Positions 805 to 8,165 of a stretch of DNA of 41,033 nucleotides are shown piece after piece. The position numbers were made by a program, and so were the translations under genes. Source of the DNA: a virus (taxonomy: Duplodnaviria; Heunggongvirae; Uroviricota; Caudoviricetes). Where the stretch lies: the IMG/VR virus record IMGVR_UViG_2541047701_000006, one strand, 5' to 3'. Within the stretch, counting starts at the first letter, position 1, and every line of letters starts with the position of its first letter. A model generated the notes under the pieces. It was not told the DNA's origin and did no database searches. It saw only the letters and a program-made list of their open reading frames with translations.

Positions 805-1380
805 TCATAATTCTGTGCTGGTGGCAGGAATTAATTTCTGCCAGATAGCGGAAACATATTTTGCCTGATGACGGGCATCGGCTAGGGCGTTGTGCCGTTC
901 GCCATCGAAAGGCATGTCCATTTTGGGGTCGAATCCGATGGAACGCCCAAGCGTAACGATCGTGCGTACATCGTGGTCATTCCAGTATGCCCACGGGCAG
1001 ATTTGTCCTGCTCGCTCATAAGCTCCACGTAAAATTACGTTGTCGAAGGTGGCCCCGTTACCCCAGACTTTTAAATATTTCGTATTGGCTGCGTGCCGGT
1101 TAATGAAATGATTTAGTTCTGAGAGAGCATCGCTGATCGACAAAGTATCATCAATACAGATTGCAGCTCGTGCTTCAGGGCTTTGTTTCAACCACCACAG
1201 GATGGTATCGCCGTCAGGTGTAGCTCCTTGCCCCATAGCACTTTCCAGGCTAACAACCGTATAGAATTCTTGTCCGATGTCTCCGGTTTCTGGAGTGAAG
1301 AACACCGCGCCAATGGAAACGATCGGTGCATCCTTATTTTTCCCCATCGTCTCAAGGTCGATCATTAAGTTGTTCATCAC
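805..1380 (-). CDS. Phage 3'-5' exonuclease (DnaQ/DEDD-like)
   Basis: N-terminal IDLETMG motif and overall DEDD-exonuclease-like translation; first gene-sized ORF of the leftward early operon. Confidence 0.6.
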   Translation of the reverse strand: MMNNLMIDLETMGKNKDAPIVSIGAVFFTPETGDIGQEFYTVVSLESAMGQGATPDGDTILWWLKQSPEARAAICIDDTLSISDALSELNHFINRHAANTKYLKVWGNGATFDNVILRGAYERAGQICPWAYWNDHDVRTIVTLGRSIGFDPKMDMPFDGERHNALADARHQAKYVSAIWQKLIPATSTEL

Positions 1381-2393
1381 TTCACCTCCTGCGGCGGTTC
1401 CGGTAGCGGCATCCAGTGAGTTGCTTGCTCAATACCATTACCCGGCTTAATCGTTGCATCTCCGCGCCGAAAGGTGCTTCCGGTATAGCGTGCGGAGCAT
1501 ATTAGCGGTTCAACCAGAGAGCTATCGAAATTCACCGAAATAAGCACGTTCTGGCCCTTTTCAGGCATTCGATCACTACAGCTTATCCAACTATCCGGAG
1601 TTCCCGGAGAGTTGCCATTTACATCGAAGTTTGGCTCTGCGTCCTGAACCAGGAGGATGTAACCATTCTTGGCTGTATCAAGTTCTAACGCCTCGGTGAC
1701 GGTGCCGAAATAGCGATTACCTAAATCAGCATCACAAGTGCTTACATCAATGGAAACTTCCATGCCTTCGATTAATTCTGGCAAGTTGTAAGTTTGGCTT
1801 ACAGGTTGGCTACCCTGAAGCATGGCAGCGTGGCAGGCTTCATCAACCATAGCTTCTACGTTTTCGAGAAGTACGTAACTGTACTGCTGCCCACTAACCC
1901 ATTCTTTTCTGCGAGGTAATGCGCGTGGGTCCGCTACAATGGTTCGCAAACGTTCCAGAACAGCAGGCACTACCGGCTCTACTGCCAACTGACTGGCATA
2001 TTTGTTAATGGTAACGATAAGCTCTTGCTCTGCCTCATCCAGACAATCACCGATACCTCGCCTGTCACCGTCAAAATCATCGAAATCGGCGCGAATCCTG
2101 GCAACCTCCCGGATTGCGGACAACACCTCATCAGGAATTACCGGTACTGGCTGGGCTATATATAGCGGCTGAACATACCAGCCATTCGATAACCAACTGT
2201 CAGCAATGTTTTTACTCCGGGTTATTGCCGGAATACCTAAGCCGTTGTCTGAATGCAGCCAGGCCACCGGTTCTGCTTCCAGCGAGGCTAACGCTATTTC
2301 ATAAGCCCGGCGCTCAATATTGTCTCGAACGTCCAGGCTGCCTATGCGCTCTTTGATTTCTTTAATCAGTTCTTTGTCGGTGAACGTTGTCAT
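1377..2393 (-). CDS. DUF551-domain phage protein
   Basis: C-terminal W-rich segment ending THWMPLPEPP typical of DUF551; start overlaps next gene; N-terminus MTTFTDKELIKEI shared with ORF 3163-3444. Confidence 0.55.
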   Translation of the reverse strand: MTTFTDKELIKEIKERIGSLDVRDNIERRAYEIALASLEAEPVAWLHSDNGLGIPAITRSKNIADSWLSNGWYVQPLYIAQPVPVIPDEVLSAIREVARIRADFDDFDGDRRGIGDCLDEAEQELIVTINKYASQLAVEPVVPAVLERLRTIVADPRALPRRKEWVSGQQYSYVLLENVEAMVDEACHAAMLQGSQPVSQTYNLPELIEGMEVSIDVSTCDADLGNRYFGTVTEALELDTAKNGYILLVQDAEPNFDVNGNSPGTPDSWISCSDRMPEKGQNVLISVNFDSSLVEPLICSARYTGSTFRRGDATIKPGNGIEQATHWMPLPEPPQEVK

Positions 2394-2403
2394 GTGTTAG
2401 TCC

Positions 2404-2667
2404 TTAACCCGCTGTGCTTTCAACTGACGAGGGGAACAAAATCTTTTCTTCAAATCCGGCATTCATATCATGGACAGCAACACACCAATCCATTGACGAA
2501 CGATTATCAAGAGCCTCCATGATTTCATCCATGCGGCGTAGGTCATACAGGTAAATGTTTTTATCGCCAATGGTGTAAAAACCAATTTTTTTCGGTGACG
2601 GGCAGCGATCAAGAACGTTCTGTAATTCGCTCAACCATGCCTGTTCCTTTTTTGTCAAAGTTGCCAT
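2404..2667 (-). CDS. Hypothetical phage protein
   Basis: 87-aa ORF starting MATLTKK; start sits in the repeated junction (AAGGAGAGTGATATGG) so the RBS lies in the upstream gene's last codons. Confidence 0.5.
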   Translation of the reverse strand: MATLTKKEQAWLSELQNVLDRCPSPKKIGFYTIGDKNIYLYDLRRMDEIMEALDNRSSMDWCVAVHDMNAGFEEKILFPSSVESTAG

Positions 2668-2668
2668 A

Positions 2669-3160
2669 TCACTCTCCTTTGATGCGAATGCCAGTGGTAC
2701 TCATTCTCCTGATTTCCCAGAGCACACGAGGAACACCACCGTTTCCGATCGGATCGCGTTTACTCCGCAGGGCGACGCTTGATTCCGCCCAGTTTTTTCT
2801 TGGAGGAAGCTCTTTCACACGAACAAAACCAGCTGCGCGAAGAGATGCTCCTGATTCATCTGCCTGGGTGTACGTAATACAACGTTGATAACCCATAGCT
2901 TTTGCTGCCCGCCAGACAGCACCATAAAGCGCGCTGTTAGCGTTGCGTTCTCCTGTGGTACATGTGCGATTTACTTCAAGCGTTAATCCATCGTCCAAAT
3001 GTCGTGCAACAGGTCGACCAGCTGTCGCCACACCTATCAATTCTCCGGCATCATTTATCAGACCAATGCTGAATTTATGCCCAACAGGTGGTTTATTGTG
3101 TCGGTGATGTCTGGATATAAACGCCTTCGCAACACGAAGAGTAACCGGTGAAATTTGCAT
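2669..3160 (-). CDS. Hypothetical phage protein
   Basis: ORF ending IRIKGE; start set at MQISP (ATG at 3160) 2 nt after the upstream TGA, RBS AAGGAGAG inside the upstream gene; track ORF extends to 3199. Confidence 0.5.
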   Translation of the reverse strand: MQISPVTLRVAKAFISRHHRHNKPPVGHKFSIGLINDAGELIGVATAGRPVARHLDDGLTLEVNRTCTTGERNANSALYGAVWRAAKAMGYQRCITYTQADESGASLRAAGFVRVKELPPRKNWAESSVALRSKRDPIGNGGVPRVLWEIRRMSTTGIRIKGE

Positions 3161-3162
3161 TC

Positions 3163-3444
3163 TCACTCTCCTTTGATGCGAATGTTTACAGCCTGACAAG
3201 CCTCTTCGAGAACCCAGTCAACAGCGTCTTTCCATGCTCCGGTTTCGACTGGCGGATTTTCACGCTTAACCTGTTCATAGAAGCGCACCGCTTTAACCAA
3301 TCCTTCTGGTGTCAGTGGCACAGGCGGGGCAGTGAATAACGCCTGAATTTCATAGTTCGGCCTGTCGTTGCAGTCTTCTTTTGTCGGTACGTATTTCCAG
3401 TCACTGATTTCTTTAATCAGTTCTTTGTCGGTGAACGTTGTCAT
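3163..3444 (-). CDS. Hypothetical phage protein (shares N-terminal module with 1377-2393 gene)
   Basis: 93-aa ORF MTTFTDKELIKEI..., ends NIRIKGE; about 50 bp at its start is repeated at 2350-2405. Confidence 0.5.
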   Translation of the reverse strand: MTTFTDKELIKEISDWKYVPTKEDCNDRPNYEIQALFTAPPVPLTPEGLVKAVRFYEQVKRENPPVETGAWKDAVDWVLEEACQAVNIRIKGE

Positions 3445-3447
3445 GTG

Positions 3448-3735
3448 TTAGTCCTCATCCACTTCAACGCCATCTTTCAGCGTGATGCCGTGCCAATCAT
3501 CAGCCCAACTGGTTAGCCCTGGCGCATCAATGCTAGGCATATAGACGCTTGCAGTGTGGTAGCCCTTATCGTTATCAATGCTGGCAACGTGCTCGCCGTT
3601 GTATGCGCTCAGCGTGTCCAGGACGCTATAAAACTTTCCTCCGGCTGCCCTGAAATCCTTTACAGCCTTCACAAGGCGATTCCACGCTTTTTCCTGTTCT
3701 GGCGTCAGGTCGATTAATTCCTGCAAAGTTGCCAT
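3448..3735 (-). CDS. Hypothetical phage protein
   Basis: Start set at MATLQELIDL (ATG at 3735) using the same junction/RBS repeat; track ORF extends to 3897 overlapping the upstream gene. Confidence 0.5.
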   Translation of the reverse strand: MATLQELIDLTPEQEKAWNRLVKAVKDFRAAGGKFYSVLDTLSAYNGEHVASIDNDKGYHTASVYMPSIDAPGLTSWADDWHGITLKDGVEVDED

Positions 3736-3736
3736 A

Positions 3737-4300
3737 TCACTCTCCTTTGATGCGAATGCCAGCGGCGCGCTCGGCTTCACTTTGTTCCCAAAACCACTTG
3801 TGAAGCGCCATAAGTTTTTCGTCAATCGGTGCATATTTGCGATTAAAGTAGGCCTGAGCATCTTTCTCAGATTCGTCCGGTAATTCGCCTGGGCCAAACA
3901 GTGTGTTATAAATCCATGCCAGTCCGCTCTTAGCGTCGCCAGTTGCCTGCCATTCGATAATGGCAGCCTGCATGACCAGAATGTTTTTCCCGATTAATAG
4001 GTCCAGTTCTTTGTACCGGTTGCGGATGTATGCATTCTCGCTTTGTAATTCAGCGTTTCGCTTCTCTGCTGCTTCCAGCTCATCCAGCAGCGCCAAGACG
4101 GTGGCAGGATTGGCGGCGGCTATGAATCGTTTATTGGCGCGATTATCTGGTCCTGAGCATGATGCTATGTAGTAATTGGCGTTCAGTCCGGCATCGGCAA
4201 TTACTCCATGGTAGTCATCAGCACACCATTCGCCTGGTGTTGCATTTTCTGCCGCCAGTCGCAGAGACTGATAGTTAATCTCGCTCACTGGTTGCCTCAT
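3737..4300 (-). CDS. Ead/Ea22-like protein
   Basis: N-terminal INYQSLRLAAENATPGEW and central coiled coil resemble the Ea22-like family of lambdoid early-left regions; ends GIRIKGE. Confidence 0.55.
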   Translation of the reverse strand: MRQPVSEINYQSLRLAAENATPGEWCADDYHGVIADAGLNANYYIASCSGPDNRANKRFIAAANPATVLALLDELEAAEKRNAELQSENAYIRNRYKELDLLIGKNILVMQAAIIEWQATGDAKSGLAWIYNTLFGPGELPDESEKDAQAYFNRKYAPIDEKLMALHKWFWEQSEAERAAGIRIKGE

Positions 4301-4524
4301 TTACGGATCTGCGCTGCGATGCGCGAAAAAAAAGACTCCCGCGTATGACTGTTAAGAGCTGGCGCGAACGCTGCGTTAAGAACGGCAGCATCACAGCCGT
4401 CATCGATATAGAGCGCAATTTTTTTCTCCAGGCGCGCTTTGGCTTCCTGCAACTGCATACCCCGGCACGCACGCGGGATATACTCAGCAATTTGAGCGAT
4501 AGATTTTTCGTTCTGTTTAAACAT
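4297..4524 (-). CDS. Hypothetical phage protein
   Basis: 75-aa ORF overlapping its neighbours by 4-8 nt in an operon. Confidence 0.45.
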   Translation of the reverse strand: MFKQNEKSIAQIAEYIPRACRGMQLQEAKARLEKKIALYIDDGCDAAVLNAAFAPALNSHTRESFFSRIAAQIRK

Positions 4525-4720
4525 GCTTCACCTCGATAGGCTTGATGCTGTCGATCAGCAGTCGGCGGCGCGTATTTTCTGCAAAGTGGCGGCGTCCGGT
4601 TTCTTTGTGGTAAAACTCGTTTTTTCCGACGACCCACATCCGCTTTGTCTGGTGCAGTTTTTTTACCTGCGGACCGTCTCGGGTGATAACAATTCCTGTA
4701 TGAGTTTTTATCACGCTCAT
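4517..4720 (-). CDS. Hypothetical phage protein
   Basis: 67-aa basic ORF, overlapping starts/stops with neighbours. Confidence 0.45.
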   Translation of the reverse strand: MSVIKTHTGIVITRDGPQVKKLHQTKRMWVVGKNEFYHKETGRRHFAENTRRRLLIDSIKPIEVKHV

Positions 4721-5079
4721 TTCTTATTCTCCGGTGCTTTCGGCATTACTGCCCAGTGAGTGATATTGACGTTTTCAAGGTCCCCGACCTGAAATGTCCA
4801 CTGCCATTCTCCGGTTTCTTTTTGTCCCCAGGTGTACCAGAGAGAACGCCAGCCAATTAGCCAGCCTTCTCCGTTAGCATCAAATAACAGAACACTTTCA
4901 TTTGCTGGTGGCAGTTCAGCTGACACTGGTATTATTTTGTTTTCCAGTTCCGCACATTTAGCTTCAAGCGCATCGAATTTACGTACCAGGTACTCAGCAT
5001 TTGTTTCGTTCACTTTCAGATCTCGCGGTACACATTTCCCGCGAAGAAACCCTTCCATTTCGAAAACATTCATGCGCAT
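4717..5079 (-). CDS. DUF551-domain protein (YfdS-like)
   Basis: GWLIGWRSLWYTWGQKETGEWQW...THWAVMP tryptophan-rich motif; 120 aa. Confidence 0.55.
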   Translation of the reverse strand: MRMNVFEMEGFLRGKCVPRDLKVNETNAEYLVRKFDALEAKCAELENKIIPVSAELPPANESVLLFDANGEGWLIGWRSLWYTWGQKETGEWQWTFQVGDLENVNITHWAVMPKAPENKK

Positions 5080-5606
5080 TTGCGTAACTCCGATAACTCG
5101 TTAAAACGTTCCATAAACATCCCGTAGGCATGGCCTGGTGACAGTGGAATAACTTTGAACATCTCTGTCGCCGGGATACCTTCCAGTACAGGCCAGAAAG
5201 AGCCATCATCAAGCCCGAGATCGCGGCGTTCGGTTGCCAGCATAATGAGATCGGCATATTTCACTGGCGTGCTCATAACAGGAGGTAACCCGTATTTCTC
5301 ACGGATTACGGCGTCTATTTTTTCTTCCATCCGTTTATAGTCAGGAAGAAGGCGTTTCAGTGGTGCGGGGATGTCCTGGCAATATGCTTCTGTTGCATCA
5401 TGCATTAACGCTTCAAAAGCAAATTCCTGCGGCACCAACTGGCTGCAAAGCACCGCATGCTGGGCGACACTGTAGAAGTGTGAAAGATGTCCTGCAAAGC
5501 GACAGATATTTGAAAGGGAAACTGCGATATCGTTAATCACGATGTCGTCTTTATTTATCTTGTCATAATAAAAATGCTTCCCGGAAAAAGTTTTAATAAA
5601 TGACAT
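5070..5606 (-). CDS. HD-domain phosphohydrolase, 5'-deoxynucleotidase-like (YfdR-like)
   Basis: HD-domain motifs (H...HD context: AQHAVL, ALMHDATEAY); 178 aa. Confidence 0.65.
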   Translation of the reverse strand: MSFIKTFSGKHFYYDKINKDDIVINDIAVSLSNICRFAGHLSHFYSVAQHAVLCSQLVPQEFAFEALMHDATEAYCQDIPAPLKRLLPDYKRMEEKIDAVIREKYGLPPVMSTPVKYADLIMLATERRDLGLDDGSFWPVLEGIPATEMFKVIPLSPGHAYGMFMERFNELSELRKCA

Positions 5607-5734
5607 TTCGTTCTCTACTTTATATGCGCTGCACCGCGTTGAATTCTGCTAAAAGGAAGCTCTCACCATCCGGTGATTATTGAGTTAATTACGTTTCCAT
5701 AAATGCCCCCGCAGGGGCATTTGCAGTAATGAAA

Positions 5735-6559
5735 TCAGGCGGTGAAAGTACCAATAAAGGTTTCTACTTTGCTGTCTTTGAATTTCTCAACAAGCAGATC
5801 ACGAAATTCGTTAGCCATTTCTTCCTGCACCGCTTCCAGCTGAATAATGCGCAGAACCAGTACAGGACGATCGCCAGTGATAATGCTGAGTCGTAATTTA
5901 AACGGACGTTCTTTCAGGCCTTCAAATGGAACGCATTTAAATTCAAATGCCACTGGCATAATGTCTTTGGTCTTCGCTTCGACAGATTCCATCAGGGAGC
6001 GTTTGCCGCTGAAGTCATTATCTTCAAAATCAGCGGTCTGGTTTGCTTCAATCGTGATTTTACGGATTGCCGCAGCCGCTTTTGTTGCCTGAATGGCGTC
6101 ACCATTAGCATCAAAGCCCACAAGGTAGTCGGCCCAGTCTTCAATCCATTCTGCCAGTGATTTCTGGGAGTTACGCTCGCCGTTAACAGACAACAGGGCA
6201 GAGAACGGTGCTGTCTTTTTCAGTTTGAGAGTGGCAGTGTTATCTGCGTGACCTGGTTCATCAATAGTACCCAGGTTAAGCACACTGACGGCACGCATAT
6301 TATCGGCATCGATAAAGCAGCGGGTGCCTTCATCTGCAAGATCTTTAGAATAACGGGTAAAGTCATCGATACTGGCAGTGGAAAGCGCACCACGGAAACG
6401 GAAGCGATTTAAATTAAATTTTTCCAGATCATGAATGCGGAAATTTTCAGGTAATACCACTGCGTCGGCACCAATCTTACTGATAATTTCATTAACACCC
6501 TGAGCAGAAATAAGGGCATGGATTTGATTAATTGCGGTTGCGTCTAAGTTCTGAGACAT
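5735..6559 (-). CDS. DUF2303 family protein (YfdQ-like)
   Basis: 274-aa [15 protein letters not shown]...; length and position match the YfdQ-type protein as recalled; RBS GTGAGGA upstream. Confidence 0.55.
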
Positions 6560-6624
6560 AATAAGTCCTCACTATATAAAGATATTCAGTTATGAGATAA
6601 ATAATCGGTTAATTAAGAACGATA

Positions 6625-6987
6625 TTAATGACCTGCTGCGCGGAGTTTTCCGTCAGGTTCACCGGCAAGAGTCAGTAATTGTCCCTGGTCTTCCTGCAGA
6701 ATAGTCAGGCGACCACCGCGATTGACATACATCGGCGTTTCGGTGGTGTCTTCTTCGGAAATTTTCCCGCGGTTAGTCGGGCGAACATATGAGAGTTTGT
6801 GTTTGATTTTTACACGGTTCTCATCAAATGGTTCGATTTCCAGGTTGAGTGAGACCTTACCTTTGGTTTTCGTGTTCATCACACCTGAAGCGACTTCACT
6901 GAGAACTGCGCCGATTTTGGTTTCAAATACGCCGCCGTCCAGCTCCCCGATAAATGCCTGCACATCAGTACTGCGTTCGCTAGCCAT
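6625..6987 (-). CDS. Hypothetical protein (YfdP-like), first gene of leftward early operon
   Basis: Start set at MASERSTD (ATG at 6987) with AGGAG 7 nt upstream; the longer track ORF to 7173 has an implausible N-terminus. Confidence 0.5.
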   Translation of the reverse strand: MASERSTDVQAFIGELDGGVFETKIGAVLSEVASGVMNTKTKGKVSLNLEIEPFDENRVKIKHKLSYVRPTNRGKISEEDTTETPMYVNRGGRLTILQEDQGQLLTLAGEPDGKLRAAGH

Positions 6988-7329
6988 TTTGCTGCTCCTC
7001 ATCATATCGACCCTGCAAGGTCGGTTGGTTTCTCCACAAAACAGAGAAGAACACCTGCGGTGGCAGCCGCCCGGATGGATTGGGTTATGAGCCCGTCGTC
7101 CGGTGATGCTCTTCTCTGTTTTGTAAAAAGAGCGGTACCAGCCGGAAGCAAGTGTACAAACTGGTACCGCCAAAGCAGTGGCTGTTGTGGTGACCGGTGC
7201 TGATCTCCGGCTTGCGGTTATTTCAGACTCTCACGGGCGTTTAATTGCCCCGCCGAACAGCTCTTTTCCGCAATAGCTGCAATGTCTTTCGCGCATCAGC
7301 CTGCGCCTTCACCACAACTCTAAAAACAA

Positions 7330-7444: not shown

Positions 7445-8098
7445 TCAAAAATCCATTATTACTTGTTTGACAAGACCAACTATTCTGCAGTTCTCACCGC
7501 ATTCAATAGTTTTATAGTTAGGATTTAGTGGGACGAGATACCTGTTCGGCCAGTCCTCAACAAATTTTTTGAGTGTCGCTTCTTGCCCACCATTGATATG
7601 GGCAACAACGATTTTTCCGTTAATACACTCTGTATCAATAATATCTGGCTCTACGATAACGATAGAACCTTCTGGTATCGATGGTGAGCCGAGGGGATTG
7701 GTCATTGAATCACCACGGACCCGTAGTGCAAATGCCATTTCTGATACAAGGGCGGTAGTATAAACCCACTCTTCAGCATCTTCTTTCCTGACACCAGGCT
7801 CCGTCATTGTCCATGAACCCGCCTGAACCCACGAGATGAGGGGGACTTTTTTAACTGCGAATATTTCAGGTTTTAGATTTATCTTTGGTTCAGGCGAGCC
7901 TTTTCCGCTAACAAGCCACAGAGGATCGCATTTAAGTGCGTTGGCTAGGGCTTGAAGGTTGGCTCCATTTGGTTGGTAGTCGTCCTTTTCCCATCCAGTA
8001 ACCGTGACACGGTTCACACCAGTCAAATCAGCCAGTGCTTGTTGTGTCAGGTTCAGTTCTTTTCGCCTTTGGCGAATACGATCACTCATGTTCATCAT
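7445..8098 (-). CDS. CI-like prophage repressor (HTH_XRE N-terminus, S24/LexA-type autopeptidase C-terminus)
   Basis: N-terminal HTH (LTQQALADLTGVNRVTVTGWE); C-terminal S24 signature (RVRGDSM serine, ATLKKF lysine); first ATG at 8098, track ORF starts at a TTG at 8122. Confidence 0.8.
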   Translation of the reverse strand: MMNMSDRIRQRRKELNLTQQALADLTGVNRVTVTGWEKDDYQPNGANLQALANALKCDPLWLVSGKGSPEPKINLKPEIFAVKKVPLISWVQAGSWTMTEPGVRKEDAEEWVYTTALVSEMAFALRVRGDSMTNPLGSPSIPEGSIVIVEPDIIDTECINGKIVVAHINGGQEATLKKFVEDWPNRYLVPLNPNYKTIECGENCRIVGLVKQVIMDF

Positions 8099-8116
8099 GT
8101 AGGCAATCCTACCACA

Positions 8117-8165
8117 TGCCAATGTAGGATTCTTGACATTGACATGTTGGATATCCTACATTTCT
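8117..8165 (+). promoter_or_regulatory. Rightward early promoter/operator module (PR/OR-like)
   Basis: Tandem TTGACA hexamers overlapped by operator ATGTTGGATATCCTACAT (8143-8160) and a partial copy at 8121-8134; between divergent repressor and cro-like genes. Confidence 0.5.

Follow-up and report, generated by a model that had tools for sequence, protein, structure and literature searches.

The origin of phage mosaicism has long been disputed, with homologous exchange at linkers on one side and random illegitimate joining followed by selection on the other. Passages of the literature covered here (PMC3029335, PMC2327257) attribute to Susskind and Botstein (1978) and to Clark et al. (2001) the proposal that conserved boundary sequences are foci of homologous recombination in lambdoid phages. 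We analyzed a stretch of 41,033 nucleotides from a virus of the Caudoviricetes (IMG/VR record IMGVR_UViG_2541047701_000006; this whole stretch is referred to as the window), in which two short sequences, J1 and J2, recur at the gene junctions of the early-left operon. In all likelihood, J1 and J2 are short conserved gene-junction cassettes that match the 'boundary' or 'linker' sequences of lambdoid phages, and genes of the non-essential ea operon would be exchanged there by short homology.

Clark, Inwood, Cloutier and Dhillon 2001 (J Mol Biol 311:657) reportedly described seven sequences, delimiting functional modules of the whole 'metabolic domain'. Lambdoid boundary sequences are short, conserved, located at gene or module borders and present in a subset of related temperate phages, have alternative non-homologous flanks, and are proposed as recombination foci. 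Likewise, J1 and J2 are short and located at gene borders, their flanks differ and are non-homologous, and the breaks in similarity coincide with them. In contrast to the boundary sequences as reportedly described, J1 and J2 delimit single small genes of the ea region, and J1 is located within the upstream open reading frame (ORF) and doubles as the ribosome-binding site of the downstream gene. J1 and J2 would be a further, well-documented member of this known kind and not a new mechanism. Among the papers covered by a full-text search, none contained 'IRIKGE'.

The core of J1 comprises 21 nucleotides (ATTCGCATCAAAGGAGAGTGA), encodes I-R-I-K-G-E-stop on the minus strand, and contains a strong ribosome-binding site. 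Exact copies were found at 2669-2689, 3163-3183, and 3737-3757. No further match with up to three mismatches was present in the window, and 100 shuffles yielded none. In its full extent of approximately 31-37 bp, J1 reads (CGCGCC)GCTGGC-ATTCGCATCAAAGGAGAGTGA-K-ATG.

All three copies lie on the minus strand. Copy 1 (2656-2697) contains the tail ..TTGIRIKGE of an XF1762/Mom-like gene with TGA at 2669-2671, a spacer of one nucleotide, and the ATG (2665-2667) of a gene for an 87-amino-acid protein with the opening codons MATL. Copy 3 (3724-3765) contains the tail ..AAGIRIKGE of an Ead/Ea22-like gene (TGA 3737-3739), again a 1-nt spacer, and the ATG (3733-3735) of a 95-amino-acid gene that also opens with MATL. 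Copy 2 (3150-3191) is diverged; it contains the tail ..AVNIRIKGE of a 93-amino-acid gene (TGA 3163-3165), a 2-nt spacer, and the ATG (3158-3160) of the XF1762/Mom-like gene. As 42-nt units, copies 1 and 3 agree at 41 of 42 positions (98%), whereas the identity of copy 2 to these two is 74%. The sequence of copies 1 and 3 is ..GGCATTCGCATCAAAGGAGAGTGA-T-ATGGCAACTTTG, and their identity extends into the MATL codons of both downstream genes. The stop-start arrangement is TGA-T-ATG in copies 1 and 3 and TGA-GA-ATG in copy 2. A junction of the copy 2 type also precedes the XF1762 gene in the loci L003, L008, L009, L021, L025, and L073.

J2 consists of GGACTAACAC, ATG, and 13 codons (MTTFTDKELIKEI) on the minus strand, and starts both a 338-amino-acid DUF551 gene and the 93-amino-acid gene. 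Its two copies (2354-2409 and 3405-3460, both minus strand) are 96% identical over 56 nt, and 50 nt of them are exact (2354-2403 and 3405-3454). In copy 1, the TAA of the 87-amino-acid gene (2404-2406) is followed by AAGGACTAACAC, the ATG (2391-2393), and the 13 codons of the DUF551 gene. In copy 2, the TAA of the 95-amino-acid gene (3448-3450) lies inside GAGGACTAACAC, ahead of the ATG (3442-3444) and the 13 codons of the 93-amino-acid gene. The stop codon of the preceding gene is thus placed within the J2 stretch or directly before it. As a boundary sequence, J2 has a length of approximately 35-56 nt, and conservation drops to background on both sides. No match to J2 was found in shuffles and none is expected by chance; a chance origin of the repeats was ruled out by the absence of matches in shuffles.

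A preliminary description of this DNA, made from the letters alone, had reported three genes with a common IRIKGE tail whose stop overlaps an identical ribosome-binding-site/start junction, and a duplication of about 50 bp at two other gene starts. The three genes (XF1762/Mom-like, 93-amino-acid, and Ead/Ea22-like) do end in this way, with a core found three times exactly and never in shuffles. The identity of the junction holds for the 21-nt core, but the stop codon lies 1-2 nt before the ATG without overlapping it, and copy 2 is the diverged one. The duplicated gene start was confirmed as the 50 exact nucleotides of J2. The coordinates of both repeats had been correct to approximately 5 nt, and both repeats persist on exact alignment, the J1 core three times and the 50 nt of J2 twice.

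Both sequences join many different genes. An exact 21-mer scan of IMG/VR returned at least 120 contigs with the J1 core. The flanks (upstream -260 to -20, downstream +10 to +250) were clustered by single linkage at ≥80% identity over ≥60% of the length, and the 126 J1 occurrences with flanks were distributed over at least 23 upstream and at least 25 downstream clusters in 63 combinations. For J2, 55 upstream-downstream combinations were found; the earlier term 'portable' is borne out by these numbers. With one representative per combination, conservation around J1 was high at about -12 to +24 only and at background beyond. J1 closed a long ORF in every case (46-393 codons, n=128), and the spacer between stop and start was 1 nt in 120 of 132 junctions and 2 nt in 7 of 132. 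Among the matches listed, 111 loci carried one copy and nine carried two, while three copies were present in the window only.

A BLAST search with a 37-mer revealed J1 in 372 phage records, including Stx phages, HK022, P22-like Salmonella phages, and P1/P7-like phage-plasmids. In HK620 (2790-2830) it is located at the hkaG/hkaF junction. J1 was present in 1,617 of 5,426 complete E. coli genomes (~30%), with a maximum of five sites in one genome, and 194 of its sites were located on plasmids. Because of this abundance in genomes, the multiple copies, and the many phage records, recombination partners would often be present in one cell. De Paepe et al. reported no recent exchange between the lambda-like and the P1-P2-Mu groups (PMC3945230); in contrast, J1 and Ead-like genes were found in P7, where J1 (L281, 88982-89018) lies between the Ead-like Upf88.3 and Upf89.0, in the hea operon under control of C1. 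J1, J2, and the XF1762 and 95-amino-acid cassettes also occur in P1/P7-like phages and in phage-like E. coli plasmids of 56-58 kb, for example pSJ3-3 (L280).

Two further samples (L123-L279) were gathered independently of J1, via the 87-amino-acid protein (80 loci) and the 95-amino-acid protein (78 loci). An IRIKGE-type junction was found upstream of the 87-amino-acid gene in approximately 63 of the 80 loci, behind many different upstream sequences. J2 is usually located 3' of the 87-amino-acid and 95-amino-acid genes alike, ahead of at least 10 different gene bodies. Since the two genes are unrelated yet have common borders, they behave as alternative cassettes, as in modular theory. The other predicted exchange product, in which the 95-amino-acid gene is followed by J2 and a DUF551 gene starting MTTFTDKELIKEIKERIGSL, was seen commonly in these loci. 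Behind one particular upstream gene, a different junction (..AATCCGTATAAGGAAAACTGA[T/A]ATG), unrelated to the first, was found; it precedes the 87-amino-acid gene in 13 of 80 loci and the 95-amino-acid gene in 15 of 78, and the shared sequence in these loci is limited to TGA-N-ATGGCAACTTTG. Paralogy of the cassette genes was considered and rejected: BLASTP gave no alignment between the 87-amino-acid and 95-amino-acid proteins, and the 338-amino-acid and 93-amino-acid proteins have the first 13 residues in common and, beyond these, weak traces.

The preliminary description had also suggested that such linkers let early-gene modules shuffle by homologous recombination, and the comparison of genomes supports this. 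In 99 non-identical J1 contexts, positions -4 and leftward had an adjusted mutual information of 0.25-0.55 with the upstream cluster and of at most 0.13 with the downstream cluster. At positions +21 and rightward, the values were 0.29-0.56 with the downstream and at most 0.15 with the upstream cluster. The linkage phase switches across the J1 core of approximately 24 nt.

The closest relative of the window among the matches listed, locus L085, is 99.94% identical over 1-1783, 99.7% over 2334-2697, and 99.5% over 3724-4095. L085 does not contain a block of 1,068 bp (2698-3765, minus strand) that comprises the 95-amino-acid, 93-amino-acid, and XF1762 genes together with one J1 copy and is bounded by direct J1 repeats. 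Its sole J1 is a hybrid, with the sequence of copy 3 on the Ea22 side and that of copy 1 on the side of the 87-amino-acid gene, which would place the crossover inside the common 39 nt (CAAAGTTGCCATATCACTCTCCTTTGATGCGAATGCCAG). As read from this alignment, the two loci differ by a precise J1-to-J1 insertion or deletion of 1,068 bp. More generally, the ends of BLAST alignments pile up at 2360-2419, 2680-2699, 3400-3419, and 3720-3779.

Based on these comparisons, we propose that the J1 tail of the upstream gene provides a strong extended ribosome-binding site and a stop codon 1-2 nt before the next ATG; any gene put downstream would therefore be expressed, and probably be translationally coupled. 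Since one sequence joins many gene pairs that are otherwise unrelated, in phages, prophages, and phage-plasmids that reside in or infect the same Enterobacteriaceae cells, J1 would also offer a patch of 24-40 bp identity, at which homology-dependent exchange could swap, insert, or delete whole genes in register. J2 would play an equal part on the 3' side of the 87-amino-acid and 95-amino-acid cassettes. The presence of three J1 and two J2 copies would follow from the window holding both alternative cassettes in tandem, whereas the extra 13 codons common to the J2 copies would have arisen by a separate in-frame join without homology that gave rise to the 93-amino-acid chimera.

Phage single-strand-annealing recombinases or RecA could act on such patches. 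Published minima for pairing are 23-27 bp with Red-beta and 31-34 bp with RecA (PMC3945230). Relaxed recombination by phage Rad52-like recombinases (PMC2327257, PMC3945230) likewise explains mosaics with traces of homology, and its pairing lengths match the 24-40 bp of J1. The studies on Rad52-like enzymes (Martinsohn 2008, De Paepe 2014) describe longer, diverged 'shoulders' of homology, whereas J1 is a tiny near-perfect island.

Several observations weigh against exchange at linkers as the explanation of this region. Recombination at J1 is deduced from the comparison of genomes, and replication slippage or single-strand annealing between direct repeats could also yield the difference between L085 and the window. 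The invariance of the 21-nt core is partly given by construction, because the core was the search pattern; the phase switch is unaffected by this. The identity of 24-31 bp at J1 lies at the lower limit for RecA, and no recombinase of the Red-beta, Erf, RecT, or Sak type was recognized among the ORFs scanned at 805-7173 and 11186-16490. Moreover, the junction is not exceptionally conserved, because its sequence diverges with the genome in more distant homologues: in those of the 95-amino-acid protein (79-90% amino-acid identity), the ribosome-binding site in the tail and the stop beside the start are kept in diverged sequence, for example GCTGGCATCCGCATAAACGGGGAGGGGTGATATG.

Furthermore, many breakpoints of the region fall inside genes and have 0-2 nt of microhomology; linkers are therefore not required for mosaicism. 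The ends of BLAST alignments also cluster within the DUF551 and Ea22 genes. In L085, an in-frame deletion of 552 bp inside the DUF551 gene (L085 7539|7540; window 1784-2333) has a microhomology of 2 nt (CA) and leaves a product of 154 amino acids compared to 338 in the window. The similarity of J2 copy 2 ends abruptly at 3404|3405, 13 codons into the 93-amino-acid gene, where a module with ..DWKYVP.. begins. This module (DWKYVPTKEDCN..) sits behind ..QWVG in other loci, and the join shows no homology (..AAATCA|GTGACTGG here versus ..GGGTTG|GTGACTGG elsewhere). On this evidence, 3404|3405 is an in-frame join without homology and not a linker exchange, and the 93-amino-acid ORF is accordingly read as an in-frame chimera. 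Its joint was contiguous in none of the 5,426 complete E. coli genomes.

Two side observations concern the same elements. In L052, 3' of the 87-amino-acid gene, the J2 start runs directly into a J1-like end (ATGACAACATGGGAAAGGAAAGTGATATGGCG..), and the resulting mini-ORF of 11 codons looks like the scar of a deleted cassette. In the DUF551 gene of the window (~1800-1860, minus strand), the sequence ..DEACHAAMLQG|SQPV.. resembles the ends of separate genes elsewhere (..ACRAAMLQGKGE-stop, then the J1 core), and 12 alignment ends lie at 1800-1819; this internal segment suggests a gene fusion or fission at a former junction.

A more far-reaching reading of J1 and J2 is that they are more than residual homology and form a selected 'plug-and-play' adaptor system, with J1 as a dual-purpose element: an extended ribosome-binding site and stop-start junction that is, at once, a patch close to the shortest length for efficient pairing. 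We regard this as unlikely. If true, it would mean that the accessory early operons of lambdoid, P22-like, and P1/P7-like phages and other phage-plasmids draw on an integron-like pool of single-gene cassettes via short-homology recombination and without an integrase.

Alternatively, the junctions could be conserved as expression signals only, with genes shuffled by random illegitimate events and selection keeping the joints at gene borders. A view of this type, illegitimate recombination plus selection for joints at gene borders, is said to be that of Hendrix and Juhala. The K-G-E codons (AAAGGAGAG) place AAGGAG 6 nt ahead of the ATG, inside the upstream ORF. With the generally known sequence of the 16S 3' end, J1 plus the following UGAU is predicted to form 11 bp with one bulge (-14.4 kcal/mol), the second strongest duplex of the 13 starts in the operon; J2 reaches approximately -6 kcal/mol. 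In the wider samples, the piece kept most often is the 16-nt AAAGGAGAGTGATATG, which persists also behind differing versions of the 15 nt upstream. Its preceding codon varies non-synonymously between R, G, and D, while the K-G-E codons of the ribosome-binding site are kept. The joints without homology in the very same region also fit this alternative. However, unrelated genes have in common the 9-15 nt ahead of the ribosome-binding site (GCTGGCATTCGCATC), which initiation does not require, and random joints would not all recreate an identical 31-37 nt. In addition, the linkage phase flips exactly across the core, and the change between L085 and the window runs precisely from repeat to repeat, with a hybrid junction. 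Conservation as an expression signal alone is therefore quite unlikely. We rather infer that selection on this signal holds the core constant, and that recurrent exchange in the phage pool of E. coli, Shigella, and Salmonella keeps the rest homogeneous. In translationally coupled phage genes, similarly, the upstream ORF carries the ribosome-binding site near its end, and its stop is 1-2 nt from the start. Coupled junctions are usually idiosyncratic for each gene pair, whereas J1 is one identical junction reused for dozens of pairs.

The tail (..AAGIRIKGE) might also be a functional C-terminal peptide, such as a tag or an interaction motif, which is maintained by selection on the protein or reflects common ancestry of a C-terminal domain. 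Indeed, a portable C-terminal module of 45 amino acids (PEGLVKAVRFYEQVKRENPPVETGAWKDAVDWVLKEACQAVNI[GR]IKGE; window 3163-3300, minus strand), ending NI[GR]IKGE, was found fused to at least eight unrelated N-terminal bodies in the loci L003-L122 and L123-L279, including Ea22-type coiled coils, and diverged homologues retain tails of the A-A-G-I-x type. Yet the XF1762, Ea22-like, and 93-amino-acid proteins are alike in their last 7-9 residues alone, one position of the tail takes R, G, or D whereas the ribosome-binding site is invariant in its nucleotides, and the identity passes the stop codon into the next ATG and the first codons. A role of the tail as peptide is thus very unlikely. The Ea22-like gene of the window belongs to the Ead_Ea22 family, as do the mosaic ea22 genes described from lambda and from Stx phages (PMC10834534), and like these it has a common N-terminal and coiled-coil part and interchangeable C-terminal parts; the covered passages of that work treat mosaicism at the protein level and contain no conserved junction of tail and ribosome-binding site. 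In Stx2 phage I (L001, AP004402), annotated repeats ('arrangement cde; region IV') at 5007-5586 overlap Ea22-like ORFs.

It is extremely unlikely that a dedicated site-specific cassette system of the integron type, or a regulatory RNA or RNA-binding protein, has its sites in these junctions. Unrelated small genes bounded by two recurring short sequences would fit this explanation, and integron cassettes (attC) are similar in being small, promoterless, unrelated genes with recurring short borders that are shuffled in one operon. In contrast to these, J1 has no attC-like hairpin, integrase, or fixed crossover, and its exchange would depend on homology. J1 contexts folded no better than shuffles (z -1.15 to +0.75) and had no hairpin in common. 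No Rfam match at E ≤1 was obtained in 1300-4400, and no dedicated recombinase or integrase adjoins the cassettes, whose neighbors are an exonuclease, a DUF551 protein, and Ea22-type proteins. The crossover has no set position in the repeat, and an ORF contains the linker. One J2 context reached a folding z of -2.0; apart from this context, folding was as in shuffles, and a structured RNA or known RNA family was ruled out.

Finally, a local tandem duplication peculiar to this prophage and of no wider meaning would agree with the unusual number of three J1 copies and with the chimeric 93-amino-acid gene, which is contiguous in none of the 5,426 complete E. coli genomes searched, but it is hardly credible and was rejected, as the segments between the repeats are mutually unrelated and hundreds of other phages have one or the other junction on its own, joined to different partners.

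The gene order of the window is lambda-like, with an excisionase (496-795) and a repressor (7445-8122, minus strand), followed rightward by cII-like, O-like, RusA-like, Q-like, and lysis genes. Every gene of 805-7173 is on the minus strand, and the earlier label 'early-left operon' fits this arrangement of the excisionase, the repressor, and the rightward cII-like and O-like genes. The following genes of this operon are all on the minus strand. The Ead/Ea22-like gene (187 amino acids, 3737-4300), which ends in a J1 tail, matches Pfam PF13935 (1.3e-18; 68.4 bits, above the gathering cut-off of 27). It is followed by the 95-amino-acid cassette gene of unknown function (3448-3735; phrog_2821), which has J1 and J2 borders, and by the chimeric 93-amino-acid gene (3163-3444), in which 13 DUF551-type N-terminal codons precede the portable C-terminal module (..PEGLVKAVRFYEQVKRENPPVETGAWKDAVDWVLEEACQAVNIRIKGE).

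The next gene (2669-3160, 163 amino acids, with a J1 tail at its end) matches the equivalog family NF045478 of NCBIfam (6.6e-61; 204 bits versus a cut-off of 50) and phrog_1384 (7e-42), whereas its score with Pfam Mom (23.5 bits) is below the gathering score of 27.1. Judged by these profiles, the gene is a member of the XF1762 family and only related to the DNA-modification protein Mom of phage Mu. The NF045478 profile covers only residues 3-132 and leaves out the C-terminal ~31 residues with the IRIKGE tail, as if the tail had been grafted on. The 87-amino-acid cassette gene of unknown function (2404-2667; phrog_1714) is bordered by J1 on the 5' side and by J2 on the 3' side. The 338-amino-acid mosaic protein (1377-2393) has a C-terminal DUF551 domain (Pfam PF04448, 2.4e-21) and an N-terminal module in common with the 93-amino-acid gene; separate segments of it match separate PHROGs, with breakpoints inside the gene. 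An Rv2179c-like 3'-5' exonuclease (805-1380) was assigned by profile and family.

The early-left operon also contains YfdQ-like (DUF2303) and YfdR-like (HD phosphatase) genes, and the nin region contains a RusA-like resolvase (11753-12142) and an HNH endonuclease (12973-13968). An ORF of 153 amino acids on the plus strand (1-489) begins at the edge of the window and may be truncated. It has no PHROG match, and a perfect, terminator-like 16-nt hairpin (454-489) marks its end. Its place between int and xis is that of gp23 in mEp460.

The 1.4-kb stretch, together with L085, shows both sides of the dispute on mosaicism, namely repeat-to-repeat exchange at a 39-nt junction and two in-frame joints with 0-2 nt of homology. 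Homology-guided and illegitimate events coexist in this region, as judged from the compared sequences, in agreement with the traces of homology in about a third to a half of lambdoid mosaics (PMC3945230, PMC2327257). Current concepts are left unchanged by J1 and J2. Because the ORFs here are chimeras of small modules, family names from local matches can mislead. Being abundant, often present in several prophages of one cell, and carried on phage-plasmids, J1 may serve as a convenient natural marker with which to measure how linkers mediate gene flow among temperate phages, Stx phages among them.

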